Both the position numbers and the translations under genes were made by a program. The notes under the pieces are model-generated. The model saw only the letters and a program-made list of their open reading frames with translations. It was not told where the DNA came from and did not search any database. DNA of 64,000 bases, taken from an uncultured Candidatus Saccharibacteria bacterium (GTDB lineage: Bacteria > Patescibacteriota > Saccharimonadia > Saccharimonadales > Saccharimonadaceae). The stretch lies in contig CAQOWG010000003.1 of NCBI GenBank assembly GCA_948851665.1, positions 12,021 to 76,020 on the forward strand, written 5' to 3'. Of the stretch, positions 14,221-63,188 are shown in pieces. The first letter of the stretch is position 1, and each line of letters opens with the position of its first letter.

Positions 14221-14383
14221 ACAAAAACCTCCTTAAGATTCTTTCTCTAGCCGTCAAAATCTTGACCTACTGCTAGGAATACCTTTATATTATCACACTT
14301 AGTAGAAAAAGTCAATGCTTTTTTGCTACTAATCTCTTTTCTGTCAAGCATTTTTGTACCCAAATCAGCACCCCCAATTACAA

Positions 14384-14608
14384 CGCAGCGCAAAGCAAAG
14401 CCGCCGCCACGCAAATTATTATCCTGGGGGTGAACATAGCCGGTCCACGTATCCAGGCGGCGCCCGTTGATAGCTGATCCAGCCGTGCCAGACCACCAAA
14501 GGCCATTCGTCGTACGAGCGATGAGGTAGCCGTAGGAACGGTGGTAGAAGCCAGTACGCAGGAACTGGAGAGGCCATTCATTAATACGGTTGTAGTTGGG
14601 GGTGCTGG
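14384..14608 (-). repeat. Lectin-like C-terminal cassette, copy A
   Basis: Head CCAGCACCCCCAACTACAACCGTATTAATGAATGGCCTCTCCAGTTCCTGCGTACTGG, tail GGCTTTGCTTTGCGCTGCG. The open frame reads PNYNRINEWPLQFLRTGFYHRSYGYLIARTTNGLWWSGTAGSAINGRRLDTWTGYVHPQDNNLRGGGFALRCV. An in-frame TAA lies 6 codons upstream and there is no start codon. Confidence 0.9.
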
Positions 14609-14736
14609 AAAAGTCCGGTTAAACGCCGACATTAATAAAACGCCCAACTTCTCCCCTATTCCCCCTTGTATTTTTTCTTATAATGCGCTATAATTACCCT
14701 CAGATGTTAAATATTATCTAATAATAAGGAATTTTC

Positions 14737-15090
14737 ATGCCGATTATCAAATCCGCAAAAAAAGCCGCTCGCCAAGCCGTCAAACGCACTGAGCACAATC
14801 AAGAAATCAAAAAGAGCATCAAAACCGCCGTCAAGGCTTTCAAAGCCGATCCTACCCCTGCTAACCTTTCCAAAGCTCAGTCCGAATATGACAAAGCCGT
14901 CAAAAAAGGCCTTTTAAAGGCTAATACCGTCAGCCGCCGCAAAGCCGCTTTGGCTAAGTTCGCCAAGGCTACCGCCGACAAACCAGCTGCCGCAAAAGCC
15001 AGCAAACCTGCCACCAAGGCTACCAAAACCACCAAAACTGCTACCAAAAAACCAGCCGCCAAGAAAACTACCGCCAAAAAATCCGCCTAA
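14737..15090 (+). CDS. rpsT: 30S ribosomal protein S20 with a Lys/Ala-rich C-terminal extension
   Basis: MPIIKSAKKAARQAVKRTEHNQEIKKSIKTAVKAF..., followed by a ~35-aa tail (AAKASKPATKATKTTKTATKKPAAKKTTAKKSA). TTGTAT...TATAAT promoter. Confidence 0.9.
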   Translation: MPIIKSAKKAARQAVKRTEHNQEIKKSIKTAVKAFKADPTPANLSKAQSEYDKAVKKGLLKANTVSRRKAALAKFAKATADKPAAAKASKPATKATKTTKTATKKPAAKKTTAKKSA

Positions 15091-15319
15091 CCCCGCCAAA
15101 GCATCAGCAAAAGAGTTTTGGACACAAATACTTGTTTAACAAGTAGCAACAGCCTCTTAACGTCATAATAAGACTTAGGCTCGGGTAAATTGTATACTGA
15201 TAAGCACACCTAGCTTTCTAATGGCATAATGAGATTTAGACCAGATTTACGTTTGTCAAATATACAACACATTTACGTGTTGTATATTTTATCAATAGGC
15301 AAGTGCTGCTATTAGAAAG

Positions 15320-15955
15320 CTAGGTGCGTTTATCGGCAATGTGACTTATATGTGCCAAAAGCCCTTTTACCAACGTCCACGGTTCCACCCCTGTCGATTT
15401 CATCTGTCGGTCTACTTCTGCCATCCGTTTCAGAATTGCCCGCTCTCGCTCCCCGCCACGCGAAAGCTCATATTTCTTCACCATCTGTGACACTAGCAAC
15501 CCAAAAAACATATATGGATCCTGCGTCGCCTCAATCTTTGCCACCTCTTTCAGGGCTTTCCCCCCATCCCGCAAGGCCAAATCCAAAATCCCAAACGCCA
15601 CCCTCGGATCCACTTCTGTCACATTCTTGAACTCTTTGAAGTCCACGCCCTTTTCCGCCAAACGTTTATATCCAGTCGACCTCTTATCAACCTTCACTTC
15701 CCAAATCACCACTTCATGCGCACTGTCAGCATAATCACCGATTTTTTCCCAAATTTCCGCCCGCTCCGTCAAGTTCTTCAGTAAAATCCGCCGCTTTCCG
15801 TCTTCAAAAGCCCCAAACAACGTCGTCCCTTGAAAAATGCTCGGCAGGTCCATCAAGTTCAGAGTCTCCCCCTCATACACCTCGTAATCCGTTCCTAGCA
15901 CTCGGCGCATTTCTTGCTCCGCCGCCGCCCGATTCTCTCCGTAAATCACCTTCAT
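15320..15955 (-). CDS. holA: DNA polymerase III delta subunit-like protein (short)
   Basis: The start is trimmed to MKVIYGEN (15955), which forms an ATGA overlap with the mutM stop. The overall pattern is HolA-like, but similarity is judged by eye only. Confidence 0.5.
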   Translation of the reverse strand: MKVIYGENRAAAEQEMRRVLGTDYEVYEGETLNLMDLPSIFQGTTLFGAFEDGKRRILLKNLTERAEIWEKIGDYADSAHEVVIWEVKVDKRSTGYKRLAEKGVDFKEFKNVTEVDPRVAFGILDLALRDGGKALKEVAKIEATQDPYMFFGLLVSQMVKKYELSRGGERERAILKRMAEVDRQMKSTGVEPWTLVKGLLAHISHIADKRT

Positions 15956-16893
15956 TCGCACACTTCCGGCATCAATTTCTCTACATAGCCCACCTGTGCC
16001 CGTCGGGAGGAAATCGAACTTGTCTCCTCCCAATCCTCCGGCGCTGGCTGGCACTTCGGGCAATAATGCGTCCCTCGCCCCGTCACTCGTGTTTTCAAAA
16101 TCGTCTCACCACAACGATTACAAGCCTTCCCCTCTCTGCGAAACACTTCCGCAAAGTTCTCCAAGTAATTCCCAGTCGTGCCATCTGGCTTAATATAGGT
16201 CGCCATCGTCGACCCACCAGAGTCAATCGAACGCTCCATCGTCTCTCGCGCCCCCAAAAGCAACCTTGATACTTGCTTTTCGCTCAAATTCCCTGCTTTC
16301 TCCGCTGGATGCACACCCGCATAAAAAAGCGATTCATCTGCATAAATATTTCCCAGCCCCGCAATAATTTTTTGGTCTAAAAGTACCGCCTTAATCGGTG
16401 CCTTTGCATGCCTCTGACATTTTTCATATAGCTCATGAGCATCCATCTCCCACGGCTCTGGCGCCAGCGCTGCAATAAAGGAATCCTCTTCTACCGCCTC
16501 TGTTCTGAGTATCTTCACAAAACCAAACTTTCGCTGGTCATTAAAGAACAATTTCCCCTCATCGAACACAAAAATTACTCGAGTCTGCCCATTCGGCAAA
16601 TCCGCTATAAAATTATTACTCGGATGCCCACCTGCAAAAGTCTCCCCATCATCTGGTCGCCAGATTAACTGCCCCGTCATCCTTAGATGTACCATCAAAG
16701 TCCACCCGTTATCAAGGTCAATCAAAAGTGCCTTCCCTCGACGCCTCAAACCTTTAACCATGGCATCCTTCGCTACCCCTGGATTACCTTGACAACTTTT
16801 CTCAGTCAACACAATCAACTCGCGGATCCGCCGTCCCTCAATACACGGCACCAACCCCCGCTTAATCGTCTCAACCTCTGGTAACTCTGGCAT
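15952..16893 (-). CDS. mutM: Formamidopyrimidine-DNA glycosylase
   Basis: N-terminal MPELPEVETIKRGL, an H2TH region, and a C-terminal zinc finger CNRCG...HYCPKCQ. Confidence 0.9.
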   Translation of the reverse strand: MPELPEVETIKRGLVPCIEGRRIRELIVLTEKSCQGNPGVAKDAMVKGLRRRGKALLIDLDNGWTLMVHLRMTGQLIWRPDDGETFAGGHPSNNFIADLPNGQTRVIFVFDEGKLFFNDQRKFGFVKILRTEAVEEDSFIAALAPEPWEMDAHELYEKCQRHAKAPIKAVLLDQKIIAGLGNIYADESLFYAGVHPAEKAGNLSEKQVSRLLLGARETMERSIDSGGSTMATYIKPDGTTGNYLENFAEVFRREGKACNRCGETILKTRVTGRGTHYCPKCQPAPEDWEETSSISSRRAQVGYVEKLMPEVCE

Positions 16894-16932
16894 AATACCC
16901 CCATTATATCACTTTCCTGCTATAATTATCTC

Positions 16933-17757
16933 ATGAAACGTTCTCACCTCGTCCTCGGCTCCTTCTGCGTTGCGCTTGCCATCGCCGACATCACGCTCGC
17001 CCTTACCTTACCGTCCCCTGCCCCAATTTCCGCCCAGTCCACCCCTACATTCGACGGTTTCGACTACTCTTGGATCGACCTCAATCCTTATATTGCTCAC
17101 GCTGGCGGCGGCATTCTTGGCTGTACCTATACCAATTCCTATGAAGCGCTTCTTTCCAACTACCAACTCGGCCACCGCCTCTTTGAATTTGACTTCTCCC
17201 TTTCCAGCGACGGTGAAGTAGTCGCTACGCATGACTTCATTACTACCTCTGCGGACGCCTTCAACTCAACACTAGTCGAGGATCAATTCCACCCCATCTC
17301 CCTTAATCAGTTGTTTGATTTTCTCTATCATCACCCCGACGTCTATATTGTCACCGACACAAAATACACTGACGAGCCCTCCACTCGCTCCCTTCTGGGA
17401 CAACTATGCTCCGCTGCCGAAGACCTTCTTGACCGAACTGTCCTCGACCGTTTCATCATCCAAATTTATCACCCCGATACGCTTCCCTGGGTCATGGATA
17501 TCTATCCCTGGAAATCCATCATCTACACCCTATATGCTAACCCTGAATGGACCCCCGAAAATGTCGCTGCCTTTGCCAAAGAAAGTGGCGTCAAATATAT
17601 TACCATTTTCTACGCCGCTGCTAGCGATGAAGCGCTCAAACTTTGGCAATCCGCCGGTCTCTACGTCGGTGTCCACACTGTCAATGACCTTGGGACCGCG
17701 AGAGAAGCTTTCTCCCGCGGCGTCAGTAATATTTATACCGATTATCTATTACCCTAA
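16933..17757 (+). CDS. Glycerophosphodiester phosphodiesterase (GDPD)-like protein with an N-terminal signal/anchor
   Basis: IAHAGGG...NSYEAL...FEFDFSLSSDGEVVATHD resembles the GDPD/PI-PLC-X fold. TGCTATAAT lies 6 nt before the ATG. Confidence 0.6.
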   Translation: MKRSHLVLGSFCVALAIADITLALTLPSPAPISAQSTPTFDGFDYSWIDLNPYIAHAGGGILGCTYTNSYEALLSNYQLGHRLFEFDFSLSSDGEVVATHDFITTSADAFNSTLVEDQFHPISLNQLFDFLYHHPDVYIVTDTKYTDEPSTRSLLGQLCSAAEDLLDRTVLDRFIIQIYHPDTLPWVMDIYPWKSIIYTLYANPEWTPENVAAFAKESGVKYITIFYAAASDEALKLWQSAGLYVGVHTVNDLGTAREAFSRGVSNIYTDYLLP

Positions 17758-17758
17758 C

Positions 17759-20191
17759 TTATAACTCACCCCAGTTTTGTCCTATTGTCACCTCAGCCTT
17801 CAGTTTCACTGCCAACTCTGGCGCTACGTTCTCCATCTTCTCGACTAATATCTTCGACACTTCCTCAGCCAAATTCTCGTCACATTCGATAATCAACGAA
17901 TCATGTACTTGCATGATCATCTCTGCCCCCTTCGGCAAGGCCACTTTCACCGCCAGCATCGCTCGCTTCATCAAATCCGCCTCTGTTCCCTGAATCGGCA
18001 TATTTTGCGCTGCCCGCTCTGCCCCCGTCCGAACAATAAAATTACTCGACAATACGTCCGGTGTTGGTCGCCGACGTCCATAATATGTTTCCACATATCC
18101 TTGTTCCCGCGCCTGAACAAGTACTTTATCCAAATACTCCTTCACCGGCTTCCGCAGTTCAAAATACCGCTCAATAAAATCTTTTGCTGCGTTTAGGCTC
18201 ATCCCCGTCGCCTCCGACAGCCCCCGCACGCTCATCCCATAAAGCACACCAAAATTAATCACCTTTGCTGCTCTACGCTGCGTCTTTGTCACATCCTCTG
18301 GTGCTACTCCAAACGCCTCTGCCGCCGTCTTGGTATGAATATCTACATCACTATTAAAATCATCAATCAATGCCTGATCCCCTGCCAGCACCGCCGCTAG
18401 TCTCAATTCAAACTGCGAGTAATCCGCGCTTACTAGCACTTTACCCGGTCCAGCGATAAACCCCGTTCGAATCTGTCGCCCTACTTCTGTTCGCACCGGA
18501 ATATTCTGCAAATTCGGGTTCGTTGACGATAGCCGCCCTGTCGCCGTTACATTCTGATTAAAAGTTGTGTGCACCCTATCCGCTTTGTCTGCCAACTCTG
18601 GTATCGGCTCAATATAAGTCGAAAGTAGCTTCGCCGCCTCACGATATTCCTTTATTTTCTCAATAATCGGATGATATTTCTGCAATTTATCCAGCTCTTT
18701 CGCTCCCGTCGAATACCCCCGTGAACCTTTTTTGATTCCCTTCGTTGGTAACCCCAATCGTGTAAAAAGCACTTCTGATAGTTGCGCTGGCGAGTTGACA
18801 TTAAATTCCGTTCCTGCCAGCTTCCAAATCTCACGCTCTCGCCCCACTACTTCTTTCAAAAACTCCTCTTTTAGACCCTCAAAGTACGGCCGGTCAATCA
18901 GCATCCCCCGCTCTTCCATCTCATATAATACTGGTATCAATGGCAAATCAAACTCCATTAAAATCTTTTTTAGTTCCGGTTTAGTCTCAAACTCTGCTTT
19001 CTGTCGTTCATATTCAACCTTTTCATCCTGTCGCTCTAAATTCCGTACCAGCGGATTTAGCAAAAAGACCCCTTGCGCTAAATCCCAAAACCCTGCCCCC
19101 GCAAATATCCTCTCCGCCACCTTAGCGTTCTTATGCATCAAATCTTTTACATTCCAGCTCAAAATCAACCCATCCGGCATCTCCACCGGAATCTCCAAAG
19201 TCTGTTGGCTCAACCCCGCTGAGGCTTTTTTCTCCGCCCTTGCCGCCCGTTGTTCACTTTTTGACGGTCTCAAGGCATTGCGCGTCTGCGCTTTCATTTC
19301 TTTGACAACTTGCCCCGCATTACCACGCGCCCGCAGAAACTTCCCCACCAGCGTCCTAAATTCCAACTTCTTCAGTGCTGCCACCACCCTCTCATCATCT
19401 ATTTCAAGATCCGGCAAATCATTCAATTTCACGTCCACATCAGTCATGATCTTTGCAAGAAAGTATGACATCTTAGCGCTTTCACGACCCTTCGTCAGCT
19501 TCTCCGCTATTTTCCCCTCAATCTTTCCCGCGTCTAAGGCCTCGTAAACACCATCCAACGTCCCGTAACTGCCCAATAACTTCACTGCCGTCTTCTCCCC
19601 GATGCCCGGCACCCCTGGGATATTATCCGACGCATCCCCCTTTAATGCCTTCAAATCCAAAAATTGCGCCTTTTTGATGCCATATTTCGCTTCCACTGCC
19701 GGCACATCCAACTCCTCCAGTCGCGAAAAGCCCTGCAAAATCCGATACATCCGAGTGTTTTCATCCACTACCTGCAACATGTCAAGATCCGAAGAAACAA
19801 TAAAAGTTTCGTAGTCGCCGTCTTCATCCGCCTGTAAGGCCAGCGTACCAATAATATCATCTGCTTCGCAGTCATCACATTCCACAAATCCCCACCCTAA
19901 TGCTTTTACCAACTCCTTCAGGAGCGGTATCTGTGCATAAAAATCATCACCCGGCTTCACTCGCCCCGCCTTATACTCTGGATACACTGCCTTACGCCGG
20001 CTAGTTGAAGTCCGCGAATCCCAAGCTACTACGACTTTTGTCGGATCGAGTTTCTGTACGATTTCCATTGCAATCGCTGCGAATCCATACACCCCACCAG
20101 TCGGCGCGCCATCAGAAGTCGAAAGCGCACCCATCGCATAATACCCTCTATAAAAGACTGATTTCCCGTCGATAATCACTAAGCGCTTCAT
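17759..20191 (-). CDS. polA: DNA polymerase I
   Basis: 810 aa with a 5'-3' exonuclease N-terminus (LVIIDGKSVFYRGYYA) and family A polymerase motifs (DYSQFELRLAA, RRAAKVINFGVLYGMS, QVHDSLI). TGATATAAT lies 6 nt before the ATG. Confidence 0.95.
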   Translation of the reverse strand: MKRLVIIDGKSVFYRGYYAMGALSTSDGAPTGGVYGFAAIAMEIVQKLDPTKVVVAWDSRTSTSRRKAVYPEYKAGRVKPGDDFYAQIPLLKELVKALGWGFVECDDCEADDIIGTLALQADEDGDYETFIVSSDLDMLQVVDENTRMYRILQGFSRLEELDVPAVEAKYGIKKAQFLDLKALKGDASDNIPGVPGIGEKTAVKLLGSYGTLDGVYEALDAGKIEGKIAEKLTKGRESAKMSYFLAKIMTDVDVKLNDLPDLEIDDERVVAALKKLEFRTLVGKFLRARGNAGQVVKEMKAQTRNALRPSKSEQRAARAEKKASAGLSQQTLEIPVEMPDGLILSWNVKDLMHKNAKVAERIFAGAGFWDLAQGVFLLNPLVRNLERQDEKVEYERQKAEFETKPELKKILMEFDLPLIPVLYEMEERGMLIDRPYFEGLKEEFLKEVVGREREIWKLAGTEFNVNSPAQLSEVLFTRLGLPTKGIKKGSRGYSTGAKELDKLQKYHPIIEKIKEYREAAKLLSTYIEPIPELADKADRVHTTFNQNVTATGRLSSTNPNLQNIPVRTEVGRQIRTGFIAGPGKVLVSADYSQFELRLAAVLAGDQALIDDFNSDVDIHTKTAAEAFGVAPEDVTKTQRRAAKVINFGVLYGMSVRGLSEATGMSLNAAKDFIERYFELRKPVKEYLDKVLVQAREQGYVETYYGRRRPTPDVLSSNFIVRTGAERAAQNMPIQGTEADLMKRAMLAVKVALPKGAEMIMQVHDSLIIECDENLAEEVSKILVEKMENVAPELAVKLKAEVTIGQNWGEL

Positions 20192-20243: not shown

Positions 20244-20507
20244 ACGCAGAGCAGAGCATAACCAAGGCCGCGAAAATTGTTATACTGAACATGGATAATA
20301 CCAGTCCACGTAGTTAGGTAGCGCCCATCGGTAGCTGAGCTAGCCGTATCCGACCACCAAAGGCCACCAGTCGTACGCCCGTTGAGGTAGCCATGGGAGC
20401 GATTGTAACCACCAGTACGCAGGAACTGGAGAGACCATTCATTAATACGATTATAGTTGGGGGTGCTGGCGTGGCCGCACGTCCCGGAGCACGAGGTCGA
20501 GAAGGAC
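20244..20507 (-). repeat. Lectin-like C-terminal cassette, copy B (long 5' extension)
   Basis: The frame reads ...STSCSGTCGHASTPNYNRINEWSLQFLRTGGYNRSHGYLNGRTTGGLWWSDTASSATDGRYLTTWTGIIHVQYNNFRGLGYALLCV. There is no ATG/GTG/TTG between the upstream in-frame TGA and the head. Confidence 0.9.
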
Positions 20508-22590: not shown

Positions 22591-22597
22591 ATTCCTC

Positions 22598-24330: not shown

Positions 24331-24593
24331 CGCAGCGCAAAGCAAAGCCGCTACCACGGAAATGGTTATGCTGGACGAGGACATTACCGGCCCACGTACT
24401 CAGGTTGTGCCCACTGGTAGCTGACCCAGCCGTGCTAGACCACCAGAAGCCATTCGTCGTACGTGCGTAGAGGTAGCCGTAGGAACGGTGGTAGTCGCCA
24501 GTACGCAGGAACTGGAGAGGCCATTCATTAAGACGGTTGTAGTTGGGGGTGCTGGCGTGGCCGCACGGCCCGGAGCACGAGGTCGAGAAAGAC
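24331..24593 (-). repeat. Lectin-like C-terminal cassette, copy C (long 5' extension)
   Basis: The frame reads SFSTSCSGPCGHASTPNYNRLNEWPLQFLRTGDYHRSYGYLYARTTNGFWWSSTAGSATSGHNLSTWAGNVLVQHNHFRGSGFALRC. It starts 28 nt after the dnaG stop on the same strand. In-frame TAGs lie just upstream. Confidence 0.9.
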
Positions 24594-29641: not shown

Positions 29642-29865
29642 GCGCACCCCCAACTACAATCGTATTAATGAATGGCCTCTCCAGTTCCTGCGTACTGGCT
29701 ACTACCACCGTTCCGAAGGTTACCTCGGCGGACGTATGGCGGGTGGCTACTGGTGGTCTGGCACGGCTGGTTCTGCTACCTCCGGGCGCAACCTGAGTAC
29801 ATGGACCGATCTCGTCAATGCCCAGGATAACCTTTTCCGTGGCTTCGGTTTTGCTCTGCGCTGGG
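29642..29865 (+). repeat. Lectin-like C-terminal cassette, copy D
   Basis: The frame reads (stop)RTPNYNRINEWPLQFLRTGYYHRSEGYLGGRMAGGYWWSGTAGSATSGRNLSTWTDLVNAQDNLFRGFGFALRW. A TAG immediately precedes the head. Confidence 0.9.
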
Positions 29866-30204: not shown

Positions 30205-30430
30205 CGCAGCGCAGAGCAAAGCCGTCACCACGCCAATAGTTATTCTGGGCGTAGACGTAGCCTGTACGCGTATTCAGGTCGCGCCCGTCGGTAGCAGAAC
30301 CAGCCGTAGCGGACCACCAAAAGCCAGTCGTCGTACGAGAGGCGAGGTAGCCGTAGGAACGTTTGTAGTAGCCAGTACGCAGGAACTGGAGAGGCCATTC
30401 ATTAATACGGTTGTAGTTGGGGGTGCTGGC
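30205..30430 (-). repeat. Lectin-like C-terminal cassette, copy E
   Basis: The frame reads ASTPNYNRINEWPLQFLRTGYYKRSYGYLASRTTTGFWWSATAGSATDGRDLNTRTGYVYAQNNYWRGDGFALRCV. Two in-frame TAGs lie 5-6 codons upstream. It sits ~55 nt 3' of argS on the same strand. Confidence 0.9.
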
Positions 30431-30487
30431 GCCTTTGACACCACGCTACTACGCAAAATAAACTAGCAAAAAACATACAGGTATCTC

Positions 30488-46222: not shown

Positions 46223-48601
46223 CTATTGTCCAGCTTTTTCTTCAAATTCTTCCATCGTCCGAATCAACACTTCGCGCGGCTTATGCCCATTCGCCGGTCC
46301 AATCACGCCAATCTCTTCCAACCAAATCGCCAATCCTGATACGAAACCATGCCCCTTCCCTAACCAAGTCTGTAGGCTCGCCGTCGAGAATTTACCTTGT
46401 TTCAAAGTGATCTCAATCGCCTTGCGCACTACTGGGTCATTCGGATCATATCGTCTGCCCAAATCGCCCAAACCACCGATATCACCACCATCAGACATGC
46501 CCTTAATCTGCACTGTCTGCGCCACCACTTCATCGTTATACTGAGGCGGTCGCTGTTCACGCAAGAAATCGGTTAAATGTTTTACGTCATCATCATTTGC
46601 CCATGCGCCCTGAATTCGTCGCGGCTTCCCCATCATCGAAGTGGTCAAAAGTAGCATATCGCCCATCCCCAGCAACTTATCTGCCCCCACCATATCGAGA
46701 ATTACCCGTGAGTCTACCTGATTTTGCACCGCAAAAGCAATCCTTCCTGGAATATTCGCCTTAATCAAACCAGTGATCACCTTTACTTCTGGACGCTGAG
46801 TAGCCAGCACTAGATGAATCCCCGCTGCACGACCTTTCTGCGCAATCCGCACAATCGGCATTTCTAGTTCTTTCCCTGCCACCATCATCAAATCACTCAT
46901 CTCATCCACCAAAATCACAATATACGGCATCCGCTCGCCCTCGTGTCCCATCTCCTGGTTCAGATCTTCGTTCGCTTTCTCCTCGGGCGCCTCCGCATCT
47001 TTCTTGGCTTTCTTCCCTTTTTCTGCAGTTTCCTCTACCGCCGACTTCGCCATCTTCGTATTGTAATCAACAATATTCTTCACTTTTTCTTCAGCCATCA
47101 AAGTATAGCGCTTTTCCATCTCGGCTACTGCCCAGCGCAGTGCCGAAATCGCCTTTTCTGGACTTGTAATGATCGGCGTCAACAAATGTGGAATATCCTC
47201 ATATTCCGCCATCTCCACCTGCTTCGGGTCAATGATAATCAGCTTCAAATCACTTGGCGCATTACGATATAATAGAGAACTCAGGAGCGTGTTCGTCATT
47301 ACTGACTTACCTGAACCAGTCGTACCAGCAATCAAGAGATGTGGCATCTTCGCTAAATTCTCCACCACTGCTTTACCAGAAATATCTCGTCCCACTGCAA
47401 AACTCAGTGGCGCATCTGTCTTTTTCCATTCTGGACTTTCCAAAATTCCCCTCAAGCGCACATCGGCCGATTTCACATTCGGTACCTCAACGCCCACCAA
47501 TCGTGTACCTGGAATCGGCGCCTCAATCCTCACCGTCTCCACTGCCAGATTTAACTGTAGTTCCTTATCGCGTGCTAAAATTTTCGACAAACTCACCCCA
47601 TTTGGCGCCTTCATCGTGTACTGAGTAACCCTCGGCCCAACGTTCGCTGGCCCCATCTCCACGTCAATCCCAAAATCAGCCAACGTCGACTGAATAATAC
47701 TCGCATTCTGTTGCACGTCACCCGAATCCGCCTTCGACTGCTTCCGCTCAAACAGATCAATCGCCGGCATCTTCCAATCTGGATCATTCACCGCCACCAA
47801 TGCCTTATTGGTCTCAACCACCTCTTTCGCCTCAGCCTTCGCTGGCACCGCTTCTTCCACCTCTTTCTTCTTACCAAGCCCAAGTTTCCCAAACATCCCC
47901 AATTTTGGCTGTGGCTTTAGCGGCTCCTCTTCTACCGCATCACCACGCACCTCAATCTCCACATCACCCGCCTTCGCTGCAACTCTAGTCTTCTCTTTTT
48001 CTTTCTTCACCGGTTCGACTTTCTTCGCCTTTGCTCGCGTTTCCTTCTTCTCGGTCGTACGGAACCAATCTGCCACCGTCTCTATCACCGCTGCCGGGCT
48101 CATCTGCAAAATAAACGCCGCCGTCACAAATATTAATATAATATATATAATAATCGCCACACTCGGATTCAAAAGTTCTGTTACAAATTCATTTAACCAC
48201 GCCCCTACTGCGCCACCGCTCTCTGCCCCCGACAACCCAAACGCCCCCGCCAACCAGCAAATCATCAAAATCGAAGCAATCCAAACCACCGGCGCCAAAC
48301 GATTCCCTTCACTCCGAAAAATCTTGAACGCCATCCAAACCAGCAACAACGGTACCAAAAACTTTGCCTTGCCAATAATATCCGACAAGAACCCATCCAC
48401 CGAATTCAATGTTTCCCCACCATCCCCCATCCAAGTCAAAACTAAGAACACGGCGAGCAACGCCAAAAGAATCGCCACAATTTGTCGCCAAAATCCACCC
48501 GGTAATTCATGTGCCGGTGCTGATTTCTTGCGCCCGCGCGTATTTCTACTACCCGCTGGCCGCCCCCGTTTTCCTGTACCTTTTGACCTCGCTTTTGCCA
48601 T
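46223..48601 (-). CDS. ftsK: DNA translocase FtsK/SpoIIIE
   Basis: N-terminal TM helices, a linker, then the motor domain (LLIAGTTGSGKSV, VILVDEMSDLMM, ATQRP) and a gamma wHTH. The track start at 48610 overlaps the TATAAT, so the likely start is the ATG at 48601, 7 nt after TGATATAAT. Confidence 0.9.
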   Translation of the reverse strand: MAKARSKGTGKRGRPAGSRNTRGRKKSAPAHELPGGFWRQIVAILLALLAVFLVLTWMGDGGETLNSVDGFLSDIIGKAKFLVPLLLVWMAFKIFRSEGNRLAPVVWIASILMICWLAGAFGLSGAESGGAVGAWLNEFVTELLNPSVAIIIYIILIFVTAAFILQMSPAAVIETVADWFRTTEKKETRAKAKKVEPVKKEKEKTRVAAKAGDVEIEVRGDAVEEEPLKPQPKLGMFGKLGLGKKKEVEEAVPAKAEAKEVVETNKALVAVNDPDWKMPAIDLFERKQSKADSGDVQQNASIIQSTLADFGIDVEMGPANVGPRVTQYTMKAPNGVSLSKILARDKELQLNLAVETVRIEAPIPGTRLVGVEVPNVKSADVRLRGILESPEWKKTDAPLSFAVGRDISGKAVVENLAKMPHLLIAGTTGSGKSVMTNTLLSSLLYRNAPSDLKLIIIDPKQVEMAEYEDIPHLLTPIITSPEKAISALRWAVAEMEKRYTLMAEEKVKNIVDYNTKMAKSAVEETAEKGKKAKKDAEAPEEKANEDLNQEMGHEGERMPYIVILVDEMSDLMMVAGKELEMPIVRIAQKGRAAGIHLVLATQRPEVKVITGLIKANIPGRIAFAVQNQVDSRVILDMVGADKLLGMGDMLLLTTSMMGKPRRIQGAWANDDDVKHLTDFLREQRPPQYNDEVVAQTVQIKGMSDGGDIGGLGDLGRRYDPNDPVVRKAIEITLKQGKFSTASLQTWLGKGHGFVSGLAIWLEEIGVIGPANGHKPREVLIRTMEEFEEKAGQ

Positions 48602-48968
48602 ATTTCTCATTATATCATACCTTGGTGCAAAACCGCGCTATTCAACTTTTTGCCACAAACACAAAAAGTATGTTGCACTAGAATTGTTACAAGCAATACA
48701 ATTTAACGAAGTCGGATTTTTATCCACAAAAACCGATCTTCAGTCACGCAAAGTAATATTGGCGCCATGGGGTGCGATGCTTTGAGTAATTGAAGACTTC
48801 GAGTATTGTTTGTAACATCCTCGTGGTGCCATTTTTGTTATGGTAATATCTACGAACTCCAACACCTTCTTATACACGAACTAGGGGGTTTCCTACTTCA
48901 TATCTCTATCAATTCACATCGTGACTAAGCCGACCAAAATGTCTACCGTCTTCGCTCGGCGCACCCTC

Positions 48969-49194
48969 CGCAGCGCAGAGCAAAGCCGCTGCCACGGAAA
49001 TGGTTATGCTGGACGAGGACATTACCGGCCCACGTACTCAGGTTGTGCCCACTGGTAGCTGACCCAGCCGTGCTAGACCACCAGAAGCCATTCGTCGTAC
49101 GTGCGTAGAGGTAGCCGTAGGAACGGTGGTAGTCGCCAGTACGCAGGAACTGGAGAGGCCATTCATTAAGACGGTTGTAGTTGGGGGTGCTGGC
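48969..49194 (-). repeat. Lectin-like C-terminal cassette, copy F (near-identical to C)
   Basis: 224 of 226 nt are identical to 24331-24556. It begins ~10 nt after the pnp stop on the same strand. An in-frame TAG lies 3 codons before the head. Confidence 0.95.
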
Positions 49195-49204
49195 AAAATA
49201 CTAT

Positions 49205-52218: not shown

Positions 52219-52482
52219 TTTCCTGAGCCCTAACTCTGCGATTGTGTTTTTGTACTTCTCGAAATCGTTTTTCTCGAGGTACTTCAGCAACTTTTTGCGC
52301 TGCCCCACCATCTGCATCAAACCACGCTTCGCCATGAAATCGTGCTTGTTTTCCTTCACATGCTCAGTTACTTCCTTGATCCGTTCGGTCAAGATCGCCA
52401 CTTGCACCTCTGGAGAACCCACATCGTTCTTGCTACGAGCGAGCTTCTTCATCGCCTCGGCTTTTTTCTCTCTAGTAATCAT
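52216..52482 (-). CDS. rpsO: 30S ribosomal protein S15
   Basis: 88 aa. ...GSPEVQVAILTERIKEVTEHVKENKHDFMAKRGLMQMVGQRKKLLKYL. Confidence 0.95.
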   Translation of the reverse strand: MITREKKAEAMKKLARSKNDVGSPEVQVAILTERIKEVTEHVKENKHDFMAKRGLMQMVGQRKKLLKYLEKNDFEKYKNTIAELGLRK

Positions 52483-52540
52483 ATATCGCCCATTATATCA
52501 CAGATTACATCCCCAATCAACCCCTATTTTGCACATACCC

Positions 52541-52724
52541 CTTAACTTCCTGCGTACCGGGTTCTACTATTACTCCGACGGTAAGGTCTACGATCGCACG
52601 ACGAATGGCCGCTGGTGGTCCGCTACTCGTAGCTCTGCGACGAATGCTAACAACCTGAACACGGATACCACGGCTGTCTTCCCGCAGGGCAGCAGCAATC
52701 GCGGGCTCGGCTTTGCGGTGCCGC
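52541..52724 (+). repeat. Lectin-like C-terminal cassette, copy G (divergent, 5'-truncated)
   Basis: The frame reads LNFLRTGFYYYSDGKVYDRTTNGRWWSATRSSATNANNLNTDTTAVFPQGSSNRGLGFAV. Its tail abuts the tail of copy H. Confidence 0.8.
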
Positions 52725-52726
52725 TA

Positions 52727-53068
52727 CGCAGCGCAGAGCAAAGCCGTGACCACGGAAATAGTTAGACTGGGCGTTGACACCGCCAGTATGCGTACCCAGG
52801 TAGCGCCCGTAGGTAGCGGATCCAGCCGTATTAGACCACCAGTAGCCAACCGTCGTACGCTCGCGGAGGTAGCCGTAGGAACGGTGGTAGTAGCCAGTAC
52901 GCAGGAACTGGAGAGGCCAAGAGTTAAACAGTCCGGAAGGCATGAAACTTTGTTTCATGCCCAGCAAGCAATTTCATTGCTTGCTCTCATCTCCAATGAG
53001 ATGAGTTCCGAACTGAACATTAATACGGTTGTAGTTGGGGGTGCTGGCGTGGCCGCACGGCCCGGAGC
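52727..53068 (-). repeat. Lectin-like C-terminal cassette, copy H (carries a 98-bp insertion)
   Basis: The frame reads ...SGPCGHASTPNYNRIN[insert]WPLQFLRTGYYHRSYGYLRERTTVGYWWSNTAGSATYGRYLGTHTGGVNAQSNYFRGHGFALRCV. It starts ~27 nt 3' of truB on the same strand. The insert supplies TTG/ATG codons, giving the 106-aa track ORF 52647-52967. Confidence 0.9.
52920..53018 (-). other. 98-bp perfectly nested four-helix palindromic element inserted in cassette H
   Basis: Plus strand: outer arm GTTAAACAGTCCGGAA, then three adjacent hairpins, then outer arm TTCCGAACTGAAC. The hairpins are GGCATGAAAC-TTT-GTTTCATGCC, AGCAAGCAAT-TTC-ATTGCTTGCT and CTCATCTC-CAAT-GAGATGAG. There are almost no unpaired junction nucleotides. 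The other cassettes read GAGAGGCCATTCATTAATACGG uninterrupted at this point. Confidence 0.85.
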
Positions 53069-53094
53069 GACTCAAACAAAGAGCGTCTGGGGTC

Positions 53095-53811
53095 CTAAAC
53101 AGCAGAGTTCCATTCTACAGCATCTTCCACTTTCCACTCCCCCACCTGCGTTCGCCGAAGCTCCTCCACATACGCTCCCGTCCCTAGCCTCTCCCCCATT
53201 TCTTCACCTAACGCCCGGATATACGTTCCACTTGATACTTTCGTCCTAATTCTCACCTCTGGCCAAGCATAATCCAGCACTTCCAAATCATACACCCTCA
53301 CCTTCCGCACCGGCATCTCCACCTGCTTCCCCGCCCGCGCCAATTTATACGCTCGCTGACCATTAATCTTCACTGCCGAATATTCCGGCACTCGCTGCAT
53401 CATCTCCCCCACCACCCCCCGCGCGCACTCCTCCACCACCCCTCGCGTTGGCACCATTACATCAACAACTTCCGTAATCTCCCCCTCTGGGTCCCCAGTC
53501 GTCGACTTCTTCCCCAGTATAAATGTCGCCTCGTATTCTTTATCAAGTTTCAAAAAATCCTGTGCCTTTTTCGTCGCTTTACCAACTAACACAATCAAAA
53601 GCCCCGTCGCAAACGGATCCAAAGTCCCCGCGTGCCCCACCTTCACTTTTTTCGGTCGCGCCGGCACGTACTTCCGCTCTTCTTCCGTCAAATCTCCGTA
53701 CTTCGCGTCCCACTCTTGCCGCGCCATCTCTGTCAATTTCCGTCGCACTCGCGCCACCACGCCAAAACTGGTCATCCCCGCCGGCTTATCAATCAATAAA
53801 ATCTCATCCAT
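53095..53811 (-). CDS. truB: tRNA pseudouridine(55) synthase
   Basis: LLIDKPAGMTSF...GHAGTLDPFATGLLIVLVG (catalytic Asp motif). Confidence 0.9.
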   Translation of the reverse strand: MDEILLIDKPAGMTSFGVVARVRRKLTEMARQEWDAKYGDLTEEERKYVPARPKKVKVGHAGTLDPFATGLLIVLVGKATKKAQDFLKLDKEYEATFILGKKSTTGDPEGEITEVVDVMVPTRGVVEECARGVVGEMMQRVPEYSAVKINGQRAYKLARAGKQVEMPVRKVRVYDLEVLDYAWPEVRIRTKVSSGTYIRALGEEMGERLGTGAYVEELRRTQVGEWKVEDAVEWNSAV

Positions 53812-57679: not shown

Positions 57680-57680
57680 A

Positions 57681-57713: not shown

Positions 57714-57725
57714 TTTGTTAGGGTC

Positions 57726-58760: not shown

Positions 58761-58768
58761 GCTAACCT

Positions 58769-59716
58769 CTATTTTTTTACGTCTTTACTCTCTGTCATTT
58801 CCCGAATAATATACTTCGGCCGTTTCTTTGTCTCTAGGTACGCCTTCGCCAAATATTCCCCAATAATCCCCAAGAAGAACAATTGCACTCCACTCACGAA
58901 CATAATGATACAAACCAAACTCGGCCAACCCGATACTGGATCACCAAACAGCAAAGTCTTAACCACAATCACAATAATCAATACAAACGCCACCAAGCAG
59001 AACAAAATCCCAAAAAGCGCCGACAGTGTCAGCGGCAAAGTCGTGAATGCCACAATACCCTCAATTGCATATGCAAACAACTGCCAGAACGACCAATTCG
59101 TCTTCCCCGCCACTCGCTCTACATTTTCATAAGAAATCCACTTTGTCCTGAACCCCACAAAACTCCACAACCCCTTCGAATACCGATTATATTCCTGGCA
59201 CTCCACAATCGCATCCACTACCTGCCGCGTCATCAAACGGTAATCTCGCGCCCCATCCACCATTTCCACCTTGCTCATCTTGTTAATCAACTTATAAAAC
59301 ATTTTCGCAAAGAAACTCCTAAGCGCCGGTTCTCCTTGCCTAGTTGAACGTCGTGTCGCTACTGAGTCGTAATCCCCCGACTCCAGATATTTCAGCATTT
59401 TTGGCAACAACTTCGGCGGATCCTGCAAATCCGCATCCATCACCGCCACATAATCCCCTGTTGCGTGCTCTAGACCTGCCAACATCGCTGCTTCTTTACC
59501 AAAATTCCGCGAAAAGGTAATATATCGAATACGCTTATCCTCTTCTATCATCTTTTTCAGATCCGCTAGAGTATCATCAGTACTACCATCATCTACAAAC
59601 AGCAGTTCAAATTCATATTCTTTCAGCTCTGCCGTCACCTCATCCACCTCTCTATAAAAAGCTGGTAAAGCCACCGATTCATTATGACAAGGTACTACAA
59701 TCGTTACTTTTTTCAT
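58769..59716 (-). CDS. Family 2 glycosyltransferase (polyprenol-phosphate glycosyltransferase, GtrB/DPM1-like)
   Basis: IVVPCHNES...FVDDGSTDDT...MDADLQDPP plus two C-terminal TM helices. Confidence 0.8.
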   Translation of the reverse strand: MKKVTIVVPCHNESVALPAFYREVDEVTAELKEYEFELLFVDDGSTDDTLADLKKMIEEDKRIRYITFSRNFGKEAAMLAGLEHATGDYVAVMDADLQDPPKLLPKMLKYLESGDYDSVATRRSTRQGEPALRSFFAKMFYKLINKMSKVEMVDGARDYRLMTRQVVDAIVECQEYNRYSKGLWSFVGFRTKWISYENVERVAGKTNWSFWQLFAYAIEGIVAFTTLPLTLSALFGILFCLVAFVLIIVIVVKTLLFGDPVSGWPSLVCIIMFVSGVQLFFLGIIGEYLAKAYLETKKRPKYIIREMTESKDVKK

Positions 59717-60720
59717 GCCTCCTCCTCAGCCCCCACCTCAATATATTTCCGCACCTTCCCCTCTTTATAAAGATTAGCCAGCATCTCATCAAAAGTTGTA
59801 AACTTAATCTTCAATGACATATAGTTCACCTCTGAATCCGTCTTATCGCTCAACTTTACATAATAATATCCGTCACCATTGCTCGACAAAAATTTTTCGC
59901 TCACCTGACCCACTTCCAGCGTCATCGCTTTCGTCGCACGCCCACCATCCACATTCATATTATCCACTAAGCGCCCAGTCTCCTCATATTCCACTTTCTC
60001 GCCCATTTCCTCCGCCACTTTACGAAGATCATTGTCATTCGCAGCCAAAAGTTCCTCCACCTTCTCCGCTTTCTCACGCGCCGCTGCATCCACCTCTTGC
60101 TCGACTTTCGCTTTCATTAGCGAAAGATACAACATCCTCCGGTACTCTGACCTATTCATACCAAAATTATCCCTCAAAATCTTCAAGAACCCCGCCTCGC
60201 TCCGATCCACACCCCCAACTTTCCGGTGCTCCTCAAAAGCCACATCAATTTCCTCTTCACTCACCGTCAAGTTCAATTCCTTCCCCAACTTCAGCGCATA
60301 AGTATATTTAATTGCCTCCGTCAATGCTGCTTGCTTATAACCCTCGCGAACCTGATCGGCATCCTCACTCGTGCCCAACTGTCCACCTTGCTGCTCTGAG
60401 GTTTCCAAATTGCTTCGGTAAATCATCAGATAATCACTATAACGCACCTGCGCCCCATCCACTTCCGCCACTGGCACTGGTATAATCTGCGTCACCCTAT
60501 ACAGCATATCGCCCGTATCTTGCAATTTATAAAGCATCGCCCAACCCGCCACCAGCATCAACACAATCGCCACCAGCGCAATCACCACTGTGTCAATTAT
60601 TACTTTATGCTTAGCATATTGCATTGGATATTTGAATTTCCGCCCACGAGACAAAACTTCATCACGTCGTTCCTCAACCTTCTCTCGCTCAGTTTTCGGT
60701 TTTTTCTTCAAAACTCCCAT
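59713..60720 (-). CDS. Membrane-anchored SurA-N-like chaperone/PPIase-family protein
   Basis: An N-terminal TM helix, then a helical SurA N-terminal-like region. No clear parvulin motif was seen. It has a 4-nt overlap with the downstream GT gene. Confidence 0.4.
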   Translation of the reverse strand: MGVLKKKPKTEREKVEERRDEVLSRGRKFKYPMQYAKHKVIIDTVVIALVAIVLMLVAGWAMLYKLQDTGDMLYRVTQIIPVPVAEVDGAQVRYSDYLMIYRSNLETSEQQGGQLGTSEDADQVREGYKQAALTEAIKYTYALKLGKELNLTVSEEEIDVAFEEHRKVGGVDRSEAGFLKILRDNFGMNRSEYRRMLYLSLMKAKVEQEVDAAAREKAEKVEELLAANDNDLRKVAEEMGEKVEYEETGRLVDNMNVDGGRATKAMTLEVGQVSEKFLSSNGDGYYYVKLSDKTDSEVNYMSLKIKFTTFDEMLANLYKEGKVRKYIEVGAEEEA

Positions 60721-60744
60721 ATTCACTACCATTATAACACGAAG

Positions 60745-62385
60745 CTATTTCTTCACTACCTTCTTCGTTACGTCAAATCTTTCCATATATTTCCCTAGCA
60801 TCAATCTTGTCTGTGAATAAAACGCCGCCGCGCTCTGATACACAATTGCCACTACCGGCATCAAAATCCACTGTATCACCATTGAAAACTTGTTCTTTTT
60901 CTTCACATGATCCGGTCGCTGAGGCAACATTCCTAGCGATACCAGCACTGTAATAATCAGACCTATCGACGCAAAAGTCTGAATCCACCCCACCACATTC
61001 GGTAAGTTAAACGCCACTGCTCCCCTCGCACTTGCATTCATCAACTTCGGCACCCACCCACCAAATGCCACAATTGGTGCCATATAAGCCAATGTTATAT
61101 GGCCATCCAAAAGTCTCATGAACTTCGGGAACAGTTGTAAAAATGGCACTTTGTGCTCTTTGCTAAACAAATACGTCCCCACATACGCCACATCACTCGC
61201 CCCATAATCCCATCGTCGAAGCTGCACAAATTGCGCCTTTAGAGTTTCCCATGTCGACCCCGCAATCACCGCATCTTGATAGATAGGCACCCGAATTGGT
61301 ACTACCTCGTATTTTCCCTCAAAATAGAATAACGATCGCCAATATTGGTGCCCATCCTCTACAATCGTCCGTTTACTCCAAAAATCCATCGCTTCAAGCG
61401 CTGCGAGCGGCTGCGAGTGCGAAGCAAAGTTTTTCAAAAGATGTGGTCTCATCGCCGAAATGATATTAAAAAACGAGTTTGACACCGCAATCACTCGCAT
61501 TGGTGCCGCCGCCTCCCAAATATTATTCGTAAAAATCGAAATCGGCTGGTAGGCATAGTGCTGTCGATCTGGCCGCACACAAAATTCATAAGTTACGTAA
61601 TCCAAATATTTTTTACTCATCCGGTTATCGCTATCCAATGAAGTCACAATCACATTTTCTTTCCGAAGACGTTTTTTCTCGACATACTGAGCCAAATGTT
61701 CCCCTGCATAAGTCAGATTTGGCCCCTTTCCAACAATCTCTCCCTTCAAGTTGTCCGGATGCTTCACCAAAACAAAATCCTTGAACACCCCCTTAAATTT
61801 CTCCTTGAGCTCCCGTGCATTCTGCTCCATCTTTTCTCCACCCCGCTCTTCATAACCCAGTACAAAAATAATCCGCTCATTCGGAAAAGTTGTATCACGC
61901 ACCGCCTCGACCGACGGCACTAACGTCTCCAAACCCTCATCATATGCCACCATGATTACCGCGTTATAAATCTCATGTGGTTTTGGCTCACTATTCCCCT
62001 CCACCGCCGAGAGTAACCGCAAATTTTGTAAATGCTCCTGATAATCATAGCTCGTTCGTCGTTCTTCCCGCCGAACCTCATATGCCCGGTGTGGATCCTC
62101 CAAATCATTCAAGCGTTCCGCCCAATCCACCTTTCCCGCTTCCGCCATCACCTTACGCCCTTGCAATATTCGAAACGCCGTCCCTACTGCTTTTACTAAC
62201 GTAATCGCCACCAGCAACAACAGATACACCGACCCCGCAATCGGACTTATCCATGACAAAATAAACAGCAGTGCCACCGCCACGTAGCTCATTAACCCAG
62301 GTAAAATCTCAAAAAAACGATAAAGCGGCTTTCGCTTCCCTAAAGGAATCTCTGGAAAATTTAGACGCGTTGCCACAACTACCAC
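60745..62385 (-). CDS. Processive family 2 glycosyltransferase (cellulose-synthase-like), multi-TM
   Basis: The D,D,D,QxxRW signature is present (VAYDEGLE, TSLDSDN, QLRRWDYGA), flanked by TM helices. The start is uncertain. I placed it at the GTG at 62385, overlapping the upstream stop; the track start at 62559 overlaps the upstream gene by 180 nt. Confidence 0.7.
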   Translation of the reverse strand: MVVVATRLNFPEIPLGKRKPLYRFFEILPGLMSYVAVALLFILSWISPIAGSVYLLLLVAITLVKAVGTAFRILQGRKVMAEAGKVDWAERLNDLEDPHRAYEVRREERRTSYDYQEHLQNLRLLSAVEGNSEPKPHEIYNAVIMVAYDEGLETLVPSVEAVRDTTFPNERIIFVLGYEERGGEKMEQNARELKEKFKGVFKDFVLVKHPDNLKGEIVGKGPNLTYAGEHLAQYVEKKRLRKENVIVTSLDSDNRMSKKYLDYVTYEFCVRPDRQHYAYQPISIFTNNIWEAAAPMRVIAVSNSFFNIISAMRPHLLKNFASHSQPLAALEAMDFWSKRTIVEDGHQYWRSLFYFEGKYEVVPIRVPIYQDAVIAGSTWETLKAQFVQLRRWDYGASDVAYVGTYLFSKEHKVPFLQLFPKFMRLLDGHITLAYMAPIVAFGGWVPKLMNASARGAVAFNLPNVVGWIQTFASIGLIITVLVSLGMLPQRPDHVKKKNKFSMVIQWILMPVVAIVYQSAAAFYSQTRLMLGKYMERFDVTKKVVKK

Positions 62386-62876
62386 TCCCCCAATAACCGC
62401 ATCATCACTAGTACCGTCACTAAAATCAGCAGCATCGTTGTAATCACTACTATCATCGCCGCATCGCGACCATATTTCCGGTATACCCGCACCGCCAACA
62501 AATTGTGTAGAACACCAAAGACCAATGCCAAAATCGGAAATGCCAACATATTTAACCAACTATCACGCCTATATCCCCCAGTAATACCAGCAATCTCCCC
62601 GTAAACATCCCCATACCCCACAATTACCACTGTATTATGCGGTCTCAAGGTTGACAAGGAGAACACAAAAAGCAACGCCGCCATCACCACCAGCACTATC
62701 ATCAAAGTCATCAAGCCCTTCTGACGATGACAAATCTCTCGCCAGGTCGCTTTCAAACCTTCCGAGTTCTTCTCTCTCTTCTGGGCCTTCGTCGGACGCG
62801 CCGTCTTCTCCGAACGTTCCGTCGCCGGACGCACCACCCCATTCATGGTCCTCTTTTGATTTCTCGCAGTTGTCAT
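62379..62876 (-). CDS. Hypothetical membrane protein with a basic N-terminus
   Basis: 165 aa with 3 TM helices, directly upstream of the GT2 gene. Confidence 0.55.
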   Translation of the reverse strand: MTTARNQKRTMNGVVRPATERSEKTARPTKAQKREKNSEGLKATWREICHRQKGLMTLMIVLVVMAALLFVFSLSTLRPHNTVVIVGYGDVYGEIAGITGGYRRDSWLNMLAFPILALVFGVLHNLLAVRVYRKYGRDAAMIVVITTMLLILVTVLVMMRLLGEW

Positions 62877-62971
62877 TTGTTATATATTATACCGAAACCG
62901 CACACATTATTCAAGTTTGAGCACTTTACTTCACTTTCAGCCTTGTATCACATATCCATTCTTGTACTCTC

Positions 62972-63188
62972 CGCAGCGCAGAGCAATACCGTAGCCACGG
63001 AAACTGTTATACTGAGCGTGGACGTAACCAGTACTCGTGTCCAGGTGGCGCCCGTTAGTAGCAGAGCCAGCAGTGCTAGACCACCAGTCGCCACTCGTCG
63101 TACGTGCGTGGAGGTAGCCGTAGGAACGGTAGTAGTAGCCAGTACGCAGGAACTGGAGAGGCCATTCATTAATACGGTTGTAATTGGG
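62972..63188 (-). repeat. Lectin-like C-terminal cassette, copy I (5'-truncated head)
   Basis: The frame reads PNYNRINEWPLQFLRTGYYYRSYGYLHARTTSGDWWSSTAGSATNGRHLDTSTGYVHAQYNSFRGYGIALRC. The upstream in-frame stop has no intervening start codon. Confidence 0.9.

Follow-up and report, generated by a model that had tools for sequence, protein, structure and literature searches.

Why would a bacterial chromosome carry, scattered between its housekeeping genes, nine copies of nothing but the end of a lectin gene? The question is raised by a stretch of 64,000 nucleotides (nt) from an uncultured Candidatus Saccharibacteria bacterium (contig CAQOWG010000003.1 of assembly GCA_948851665.1, positions 12,021 to 76,020), referred to here as the window, in which a first-pass annotation had listed nine cassettes, A to I, and proposed that they serve as silent donors for an expressed surface lectin. 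Our analysis indicates that the nine are very probably non-coding, orphan variable regions (VRs) of diversity-generating retroelements (DGRs) that lie elsewhere in this genome, and that they are renewed partly by gene conversion.

To define the cassettes, we derived the pattern TTCCTGCGTACYGG-N52-TGGTGGTC from their invariant columns. It matches the window exactly nine times, at the places and on the strands first annotated, when shuffled sequences lead to an expectation of zero; a search with a profile built from 45 copies found no tenth cassette in the window. A 32-nt head core is present in seven copies with at most one mismatch each, the tail GGCTTTGCTCTGCGCTGCG in eight with at most three each, and the alignment of all nine has an invariant head, a variable middle and a common 3′ edge. 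Eight cassettes form one family (family 1), and G belongs to a related second one (family 2) with a different head. The shared head that had been described is therefore a property of the family-1 copies; it does not extend to G, and in H it is interrupted. The cassette coding frame is without stops in nine of nine copies, as had been noted, whereas any other frame is open in at most four. In A, B, C, D, E, F and I, no ATG, GTG or TTG occurs between the upstream in-frame stop, some 14–51 codons away, and the head. The claim that no copy has a start codon holds for these seven and fails for H, with starts inside an insertion, and for G, which sits in a spurious open reading frame (ORF). None of the window copies is a VR inside the 3′ end of a coding gene, G and H lying only in spurious ORFs. 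An alternative genetic code was also considered, and rejected from one case, the TAA that is read as a stop before A.

The middle has NNC codons at fixed positions, a pattern suggestive of adenine mutagenesis, and the origin of these sequences became apparent in relatives. A pattern scan of representative genomes returned 29 loci, almost all from Saccharibacteria metagenome-assembled genomes (MAGs), and one of these, CAZCIN01, contains at least 33 cassette copies. Three copies from the scan were asparagine-rich template repeats (TRs), for example ...GNYNRSYGNLANRTTNGNWWSSTAGSATNGHNLNTNTGNVNAQNNNWRGNG..., with both families represented, and one was the end of a gene of 572 amino acids (aa). The template repeats in loci L027 and L001 adjoin RVT_1 reverse transcriptases with the sequence IGNLTSQ, which fits [LIV]GxxxSQ, a motif characteristic of DGR reverse transcriptases; the third repeat (L017) is at the end of its contig, and no reverse transcriptase is visible beside it. 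The template repeat of family 2, to which G belongs, is the one in L001, beside a second reverse transcriptase. Overall, reverse transcriptases were found in L027, L001, L034–L041 and L052–L060 (RVT_1 at 3e-14), and a 95%-identical enzyme is present in many mouse-gut assemblies.

The full element comprises infB, a 372-aa gene, a 571-aa target, a 344-aa accessory gene, the reverse transcriptase, a TR on the opposite strand and a methyltransferase. This layout, with a 571-aa Fib_succ_major target, is found in L037 and L052–L056, and full-length targets outside the window were recovered from L016, L037 and L052. The full-length gene that had been predicted to lie beyond the window was thus found in relatives, and not in the window itself. 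The target ends in ...NGASTPNYNHINEWPLQFLRTG[VR]GFALRCVAR* and matches Fib_succ_major over residues 416–570 (3.3e-9; 37.7 bits against a Pfam cut-off of 33.9). The cassettes alone match the same Pfam profile only weakly and below threshold (E ~0.03, profile positions 118–186 of 187), and an NCBIfam search of the cassette peptides gave no match; the first-pass description of the cassettes, as the C-terminal half of a FISUMP/DUF1566-type lectin domain copied without its start, is correct. The target would be a secreted protein of ~570 aa; its C-terminal Fib_succ_major domain, a lectin domain of the CLec2 class, carries the VR. The DUF1566/DUF823/Fib_succ_major motif group has been placed in the CLec2 class of DGR targets, of which Legionella LdtA is an example (PMC5758913). 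The accessory gene overlaps the start of the reverse transcriptase (L027, 187–1230; L052, 8980–10014; L042, 2632–3798), and its 344–388-aa product, examined for likeness to Avd, had no Pfam match at E <= 0.001 and no meaningful PDB sequence match. Of the components that the first-pass annotation had named as worth looking for, the reverse transcriptase and the template repeat were found in relatives; neither was present in the window, and no Avd-like protein emerged.

Comparison with the target and the TR revealed how a cassette is built. Each consists of the last 75–80 codons of the DGR target gene and has neither a start codon nor a natural stop. Its head derives from the stretch of the target gene immediately preceding the VR, a stretch that the TR does not contain and to which the sequence upstream of the TR is unrelated; its middle corresponds to the VR itself. 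The target-derived head falls within a narrow range of 34–51 nt ahead of a 183-nt VR. B, C and H have a longer 5′ extension that does not match the known target gene; otherwise the 5′ extents, previously reported as variable, cluster narrowly. The 3′ edge, which had been described as sharp and fixed, is ragged over ~0–7 nt. Target and TR have GCGCTGCGTAGCGCGGTAGTA in common and then diverge; the cassettes retain only GCGCTGCG plus 0–7 nt and end ~13 nt (TAGCGCGGTAGTA) before the TR–VR homology does, in the GC-rich end of the VR. The cassettes are therefore probably devoid of a complete 3′ homing sequence, which would make their DGR-made diversity mostly second-hand. More than 50 orphans have nearly the same short extent, with no upstream gene remains, and cassette edges lie 10–60 nt from housekeeping genes. 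Adjoining cassettes are frequent (G and H in the window; L012, L014 and L018 elsewhere), and density reaches nine in the 64 kb of the window and seven in 13.4 kb of L066.

The variation within the VRs carries the signature of a DGR. Using TRs that come from relatives, we compared the eight family-1 window copies with the L037 repeat and found mismatches at 40% of A sites and at 10%, 6% and 9% of C, G and T sites, respectively (A sites versus other sites, odds ratio 7.4, p = 3e-40). TRs vary among relatives, with ...NFRG... and ...NWRG... forms, for example; when five variants were pooled, 24–31 of the 55 A-sites were changed in the window copies and only 3–7 of 128 other positions remained unexplained, the exception being B (22/128). 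Family-2 orphans in the MAG differ from their own TR at 17–19 A-sites and 0–3 other positions. Variation that sits at the adenines of a template repeat indicates that the diversity is made by the reverse transcriptase. DGR variable regions, which the first-pass annotation had named only as an analogy, are thus what the cassettes literally appear to be; a fixed germ-line repertoire of the pilS/vls type does not fit diversity at adenine sites. Among the TR codons, 29 contain an A, and an A-to-N change turns none of them into a stop (0/29). The open frame consequently needs no translation: it is built into the template and the copies are renewed, and its preservation, once taken as a sign of function, argues neither for function nor for translation.

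We next asked whether these sequences change between strains. Six strains (L037, L052, L053, L054, L056 and L057) have six different target VRs, and L052, L054 and L057 differ in this way despite identical flanks at a nearby orphan site; judged by these comparisons, the DGR is active in relatives. The orphan between a 322-aa gene and a DUF5663 gene occurs as three alleles that are 27–31 of 183 nt apart, within flanks that diverge by 0.2–1.7%. The same orphan allele can accompany different target VRs at identical flanks, which indicates that orphans change more slowly than the target.

A metagenome scan yielded 45 contigs, and those overlapping the window are 94–98% identical to it. At the B site of L085 and L103, the VR differs at 47/183 positions and the head at 3–5 (3/45), with 0/530 differences upstream and 5/293 downstream; the allele there is fresh and TR-like. 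At the D site of L072 and L092, the differences are 48/183 in the VR, 1/45 in the head and 3/440 in the upstream flank, and at the E site of L092 they are 35/183, 0/45 and 5/398. The I site of L105 and L061 differs at 30–31/183 VR positions, 1/45 in the head, 10/403 upstream and 1/270 downstream. Flanks at B, D, E and I are thus 0–2.5% divergent and the replaced tracts stop at the cassette edges. L070 adds ~30 VR differences between identical flanks at the G site and a mosaic allele of H. Swapped and chimeric cassettes, which population data had been expected to contain if this were a variation system, are therefore present, as replacement in place at B, D, E, I and G and as the mosaic at H.

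How are the cassettes rewritten? At the B site the head changes move together with the VR, and complementary DNA (cDNA) made from the TR cannot supply the head, which argues for gene conversion. The VRs of C and F are ~99% identical although both sites are also filled in MAG CAZCIN01, which is ~80% identical overall (L011 for C, a match that rests on synteny; L005 for F, inferred from the upstream flank only), and this points to conversion between C and F. An allele with a 3-nt insertion occupies the E site of L092, and in L034 and L036 it is found beside the DUF5663 gene. One decayed allele is present twice with different ends (L005 and L012), and five family-2 copies have one and the same VR with different 5′ ends and flanks. 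Exchange extends to the expressed gene: in L055 the target VR matches, at ~94% identity, an orphan allele of L052, L056, L089 and L097, with which it has in common a 3-nt deletion, several non-A changes and one head change. The distance from the L055 target to the orphan equals the distance between the orphan alleles themselves, and the orphan head has a 4-nt deletion that the L055 target does not have. Taken together, replaced tracts that include head changes and whole alleles that move between sites demonstrate, at the level of sequence comparison, that the cassettes evolve in concert and are renewed, at least in part, through gene conversion at the DNA level, both between cassettes and between cassettes and the expressed gene.

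Several observations weigh against this account of orphan VRs renewed by conversion. No reverse transcriptase, accessory gene or TR lies within the 64-kb window, and that this exact genome has a DGR is deduced from strains of its own species or one very close to it. Two assemblies, GCA_948703245.1 and GCA_948997535.1, match the window at 99.99% identity, and neither is among the records listed for reverse-transcriptase clusters P0001, P0121 and P0010. The window copies carry 3–22 changes at non-A sites, which would not be expected of a VR maintained purely by a DGR, and direct retrohoming into orphans may operate alongside conversion. The equal distances and the 4-nt deletion in the orphan head mean that the transfer seen in L055 could have run either way. 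Four assemblies 99.99% identical to the window show no cassette variation, and turnover must be slow on that scale. Part of the evidence comes from metagenome assemblies, in which repeats can yield chimeras; that site-specific alleles recur in two independent samples argues against this source of error.

Two contigs depart from the order of the window after pnp. In L031 (ENA ERR3199584_326), which we compared with window positions 48968–49194 and 24331–24556, pnp and a cassette are followed by the DNA downstream of C, joined to the upstream flank of F. A real deletion was rejected as an explanation, given that the join skips 24.6 kb including dnaG and argS, and we treat the contig either as misassembled, owing to the near identity of the C and F repeats, or as genuinely rearranged. 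In L080 (2530–3600; a 97.5%-identical strain, compared with window 48600–49200), a cassette, two tRNA-like genes read by eye and a second cassette follow pnp, where the window has cassette F and then ftsK.

A mechanism can be sketched from these observations. The DGR reverse transcriptase would copy the AAC-rich template repeat and misincorporate opposite its adenines, generating VR diversity. That diversity would reach the cassettes, which are renewed at least in part by gene conversion with one another and with the expressed gene, and the cassettes may in turn hand stored alleles back to it. As to how new copies arise, our leading guess, held with low confidence, is an aberrant DGR homing intermediate: a cDNA with a fixed 5′ end that pairs with the target, is extended by a few dozen nucleotides by a faithful polymerase and is then inserted ectopically, after which conversion would scramble the VR contents. 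This guess is favoured by the 3′ edge, which lies where a DGR cDNA would be expected to begin; in the Bordetella phage DGR, cDNA starts inside the TR end that resembles the initiation of mutagenic homing (IMH) sequence, 17 nt before its end. That the cassettes are plain cDNA copies of the TR was rejected, as the head is neither in the TR nor adenine-mutagenised and identical VRs occur with different ends. Some sites that hold a cassette in the window are empty in CAZCIN01, and the reverse also occurs. No terminal repeats, target-site duplications or clean junctions were visible when B and I were compared with the empty CAZCIN01 sites, where spacers are only ~80% identical, and a search among close strains turned up no insertion polymorphism. 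How new copies originate is therefore conjecture, a further point against the account as a whole.

What, if anything, are the orphans for? They could be a functional archive that stores DGR-made VR alleles and donates them by gene conversion to the expressed lectin gene, much as pilE/pilS or vlsE/vls work. This proposal is compatible with the reading as orphan VRs and adds to it a claim about function, which we consider possible but rather doubtful. The cassettes are built as such donors would be, as start-less partial copies with conserved homology on either side of a variable tract, and conversion among them is frequent. The derived, indel-marked allele that the L055 target has in common with an orphan stable in four strains speaks for donation, as does the otherwise faster turnover of target VRs; yet it is a single match among ~15 target VRs, transfer from target to orphan is equally possible, and the 4-nt deletion in the orphan head is absent from the target. 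Cassette density is high for a very small genome and the same sites are kept across genomes that are only ~80% identical, both points in its favour, but the DGR alone already gives ample diversity, and B has decayed while the head insertion of H contains a stop codon.

Alternatively, the cassettes may be selfish or accidental retro-duplicates, functionless by-products of DGR homing (ectopic cDNA-primed intermediates) that are kept recognisable by conversion and slow deletion. We regard this as somewhat less probable than an archive and, overall, unlikely. The edges speak for it: the 3′ ends fall within 0–7 nt of one point, ~13 nt before the end of TR–VR homology, a position reminiscent of where cDNA synthesis begins in the Bordetella phage DGR, within its IMH region, and the size is narrow (183-nt VR plus a 34–51-nt head). 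Intergenic sites that are filled or empty differently between species, and cassettes that often lie side by side, also count in its favour. However, heads from outside the template that are not adenine-mutagenised exclude a plain cDNA copy, the five family-2 copies with identical VRs speak for faithful DNA-level copying, the comparison of B and I with ~80%-identical empty sites revealed no target-site duplications, and none of the close strains was seen to have gained an insertion.

Elements of both ideas can be joined in a two-tier system of an ultra-small episymbiont, in which the DGR writes the lectin tips while dozens of silent cassettes archive alleles and trade them with one another and with the single expressed gene, perhaps seeded by ectopic homing intermediates, a retro-duplication activity that is not known for DGRs; this combination is offered tentatively, as one of the less probable outcomes.

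Plain decay, in which the cassettes are the last remnants of many full-length paralogous lectin genes, is disfavoured and highly improbable. Longer 5′-truncated targets do exist beside DGRs (160 nt in L054; in the second DGR type, L042 and L045), and B is visibly decayed, but remnants would have to account for more than 50 orphans of near-equal short extent with no trace of an upstream gene, for edges 10–60 nt from housekeeping genes, for wholesale allele replacement between near-identical strains and for sites gained or lost between species. Translation of the cassettes, either as C-terminal extensions of upstream housekeeping proteins through readthrough or frameshifting or as small peptides, is the least probable of all: four cassettes follow same-strand genes and the frame is open in all nine, but in-frame stops intervene 5–50 codons upstream, seven copies are without a start codon, the cassette frames differ from those of the upstream genes, half a lectin fold would presumably not fold alone, and the codon design of the template explains the open frame.

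With the cassettes read as orphan VRs, their individual features and neighbourhoods can be described. Seven of the nine are on the minus strand, as are most of the long ORFs in the window, and the neighbouring genes are as first described, apart from two swapped assignments. Cassette A (14384–14608, −) is a family-1 orphan VR with the VR starting at 14564 and a 44-nt target-derived head; it has a non-A base at 28/55 pooled TR A-sites against 6/128 unexplained changes elsewhere, and the orthologous position in CAZCIN01 is also filled (L028). The cassette at that position (L028 ~7122, −) combines a family-1 head with a family-2-like second half (WWSATGSSATAAYSL) and is thus an inter-family mosaic. 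Cassette B (20244–20507, −), with polA downstream, is the most decayed of the family-1 orphan VRs (22/128 unexplained changes at non-A sites); its 5′ extension is unrelated to the known target gene, and its site is empty in CAZCIN01. Cassette C (24331–24593, −), also of family 1, lies directly 3′ of dnaG and has the same 5′ extension as B and H.

Cassettes D (29642–29865, +) and E (30205–30436, −) are convergent family-1 orphan VRs, and E follows argS and has a 51-nt head. No cassette was found in the CAZCIN01 interval corresponding to D, as judged from synteny and pattern matches with no base-by-base alignment. Cassette F (48969–49194, −), of family 1, starts 10 nt past the pnp stop codon. 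The family-2 orphan VR G (52541–52724, +; WWSATRSSAT type) is 5′-truncated, with a head of ~6–14 nt, and sits in a spurious 173-aa ORF antisense to rpsO; its tail abuts that of H (52727–53068, −), a family-1 orphan VR 3′ of truB whose head is split by a 99-nt insertion. Cassette I (62972–63189, −), of family 1, has a 37-nt head, and its site is empty in CAZCIN01.

The 99-nt insertion in the head of H (52919–53017, −) folds as a near-perfect four-way junction with a closing stem and three hairpins (−54.1 kcal/mol, z = −6.85). Across eight variants, 99% of cells are paired and five pairs show compensatory double changes. We found the insertion in L004, L022, L024, L062, L066, L071, L083 and L101 as well, only within family-1 heads, and the cassette of L070 that is orthologous to H does not have it. 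The start codons upstream of H are inside the insertion, which also holds a stop codon, and an Rfam scan of 52450–53150 at E <= 10 returned nothing relevant to it. The loop of one of its hairpins reads AAA in some copies and TTT in others, a switch that suggests hairpin inversion at the DNA level.

Other features were recorded in the window and among the related loci. GC skew is strongly negative throughout the window (1–64000), at −0.13 to −0.46 in 2-kb windows, and further RNA genes comprise tmRNA and bacterial class A RNase P RNA at 1047–1400 (−) and 5852–6193 (−) and four tRNA genes at 13060, 56398, 56638 and 57605. A second type of DGR (L042–L051; reverse transcriptase P0010) lies upstream of ftsI-mraY-ftsW-murG and has its own VR family, with no cassette in common with the window. 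Its adjacent target is full length in L046 (607 aa) and reduced to the VR in L042 and L045, and L042 assembles as a 9.2-kb unit with identical VR copies at both ends. In L054 (6044–6395), the VR beside the DGR directly adjoins the end of uvrD and has only 160 nt of the target left, with infB, the 372-aa gene and the 5′ part of the target missing; the contig is either a rearrangement with a breakpoint in the target or a chimera. L006 (40–543) has two family-2-type cassettes on a contig binned as an Alistipes MAG, and probably reflects either wrong binning of a Saccharibacteria contig or a family more distantly related to this one.

These findings bear on how DGRs are thought of, namely as closed units in which a single template serves one coding target or a few. 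In the present case the majority of VRs are non-coding, yet they turn over and trade alleles, and this in a genome that has otherwise kept little beyond the essentials. If the expressed gene is indeed fed by the cassettes, the system would join retroelement hypermutation with silent-cassette gene conversion, and an archive would amount to a heritable memory of past receptor-binding variants, with a bearing on how episymbionts track their hosts. Should the cassettes instead be by-products, they would record an ectopic-insertion side reaction of DGR homing, and would mark the likely start of the cDNA and could help to settle how DGR cDNA enters DNA. In either case, cassette repeats break assemblies and create apparent rearrangements, and such copies will go unnoticed in DGR surveys that accept only VRs within genes. 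Remote DGR targets are already known to escape large surveys (PMC8144416).

Among known systems, the closest are DGRs with CLec2 targets, such as that of Legionella LdtA (Wu et al. 2018, PMC5758913). As in those, a reverse transcriptase stands beside an AAC-rich TR, TR–VR differences fall at adenine sites, the VR occupies the extreme C terminus of a Fib_succ_major protein and has a GC-rich 3′ end, and target VRs vary from strain to strain. Unlike them, the system described here has dozens of 5′-truncated, start-less and non-genic VR copies among housekeeping genes; these copies are without the last ~13 nt of TR–VR homology and evolve in concert by conversion, the 344–388-aa accessory protein has no similarity to Avd, and the TR is opposite in strand to the reverse transcriptase. 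The DGR of Trichodesmium erythraeum has one TR for 12 target genes, with all 12 VRs in protein-coding genes (PMC4143802). It resembles the present case in that one template serves many dispersed chromosomal VRs, and differs in that, of the copies described here, only roughly one per family belongs to a full-length gene, all others being non-coding fragments.

LINE-like (long interspersed nuclear element-like), target-primed and 5′-truncated retro-copies have the same fixed 3′ end, variable 5′ end and many unrelated sites, whereas here the 5′ part lies outside the RNA template and is without the mutational signature of the enzyme, no target-site duplications were visible at the B and I sites, there is no poly(A), and the length range is very narrow. 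With Neisseria pilE/pilS and Borrelia vlsE/vls, the cassettes have in common promoterless partial copies of a variable part with conserved flanks, segmental non-reciprocal exchange and one expressed allele that matches a silent copy. They differ in being dispersed singly rather than arrayed, no dedicated cis element such as the pilE guanine quadruplex (G4) is known, and donation from cassettes to the expressed gene is putative. The diversity is also remade by a reverse transcriptase and not inherited as a repertoire, variation being adenine-specific and target VRs unique to each strain. A search of the full-text literature, whose reach did not include the main survey of the candidate phyla radiation (CPR; Paul et al. 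2017), found no description of dispersed non-coding VRs. Neither the layout of non-coding VRs nor their exchange with an expressed gene appears to have a precedent among DGRs.

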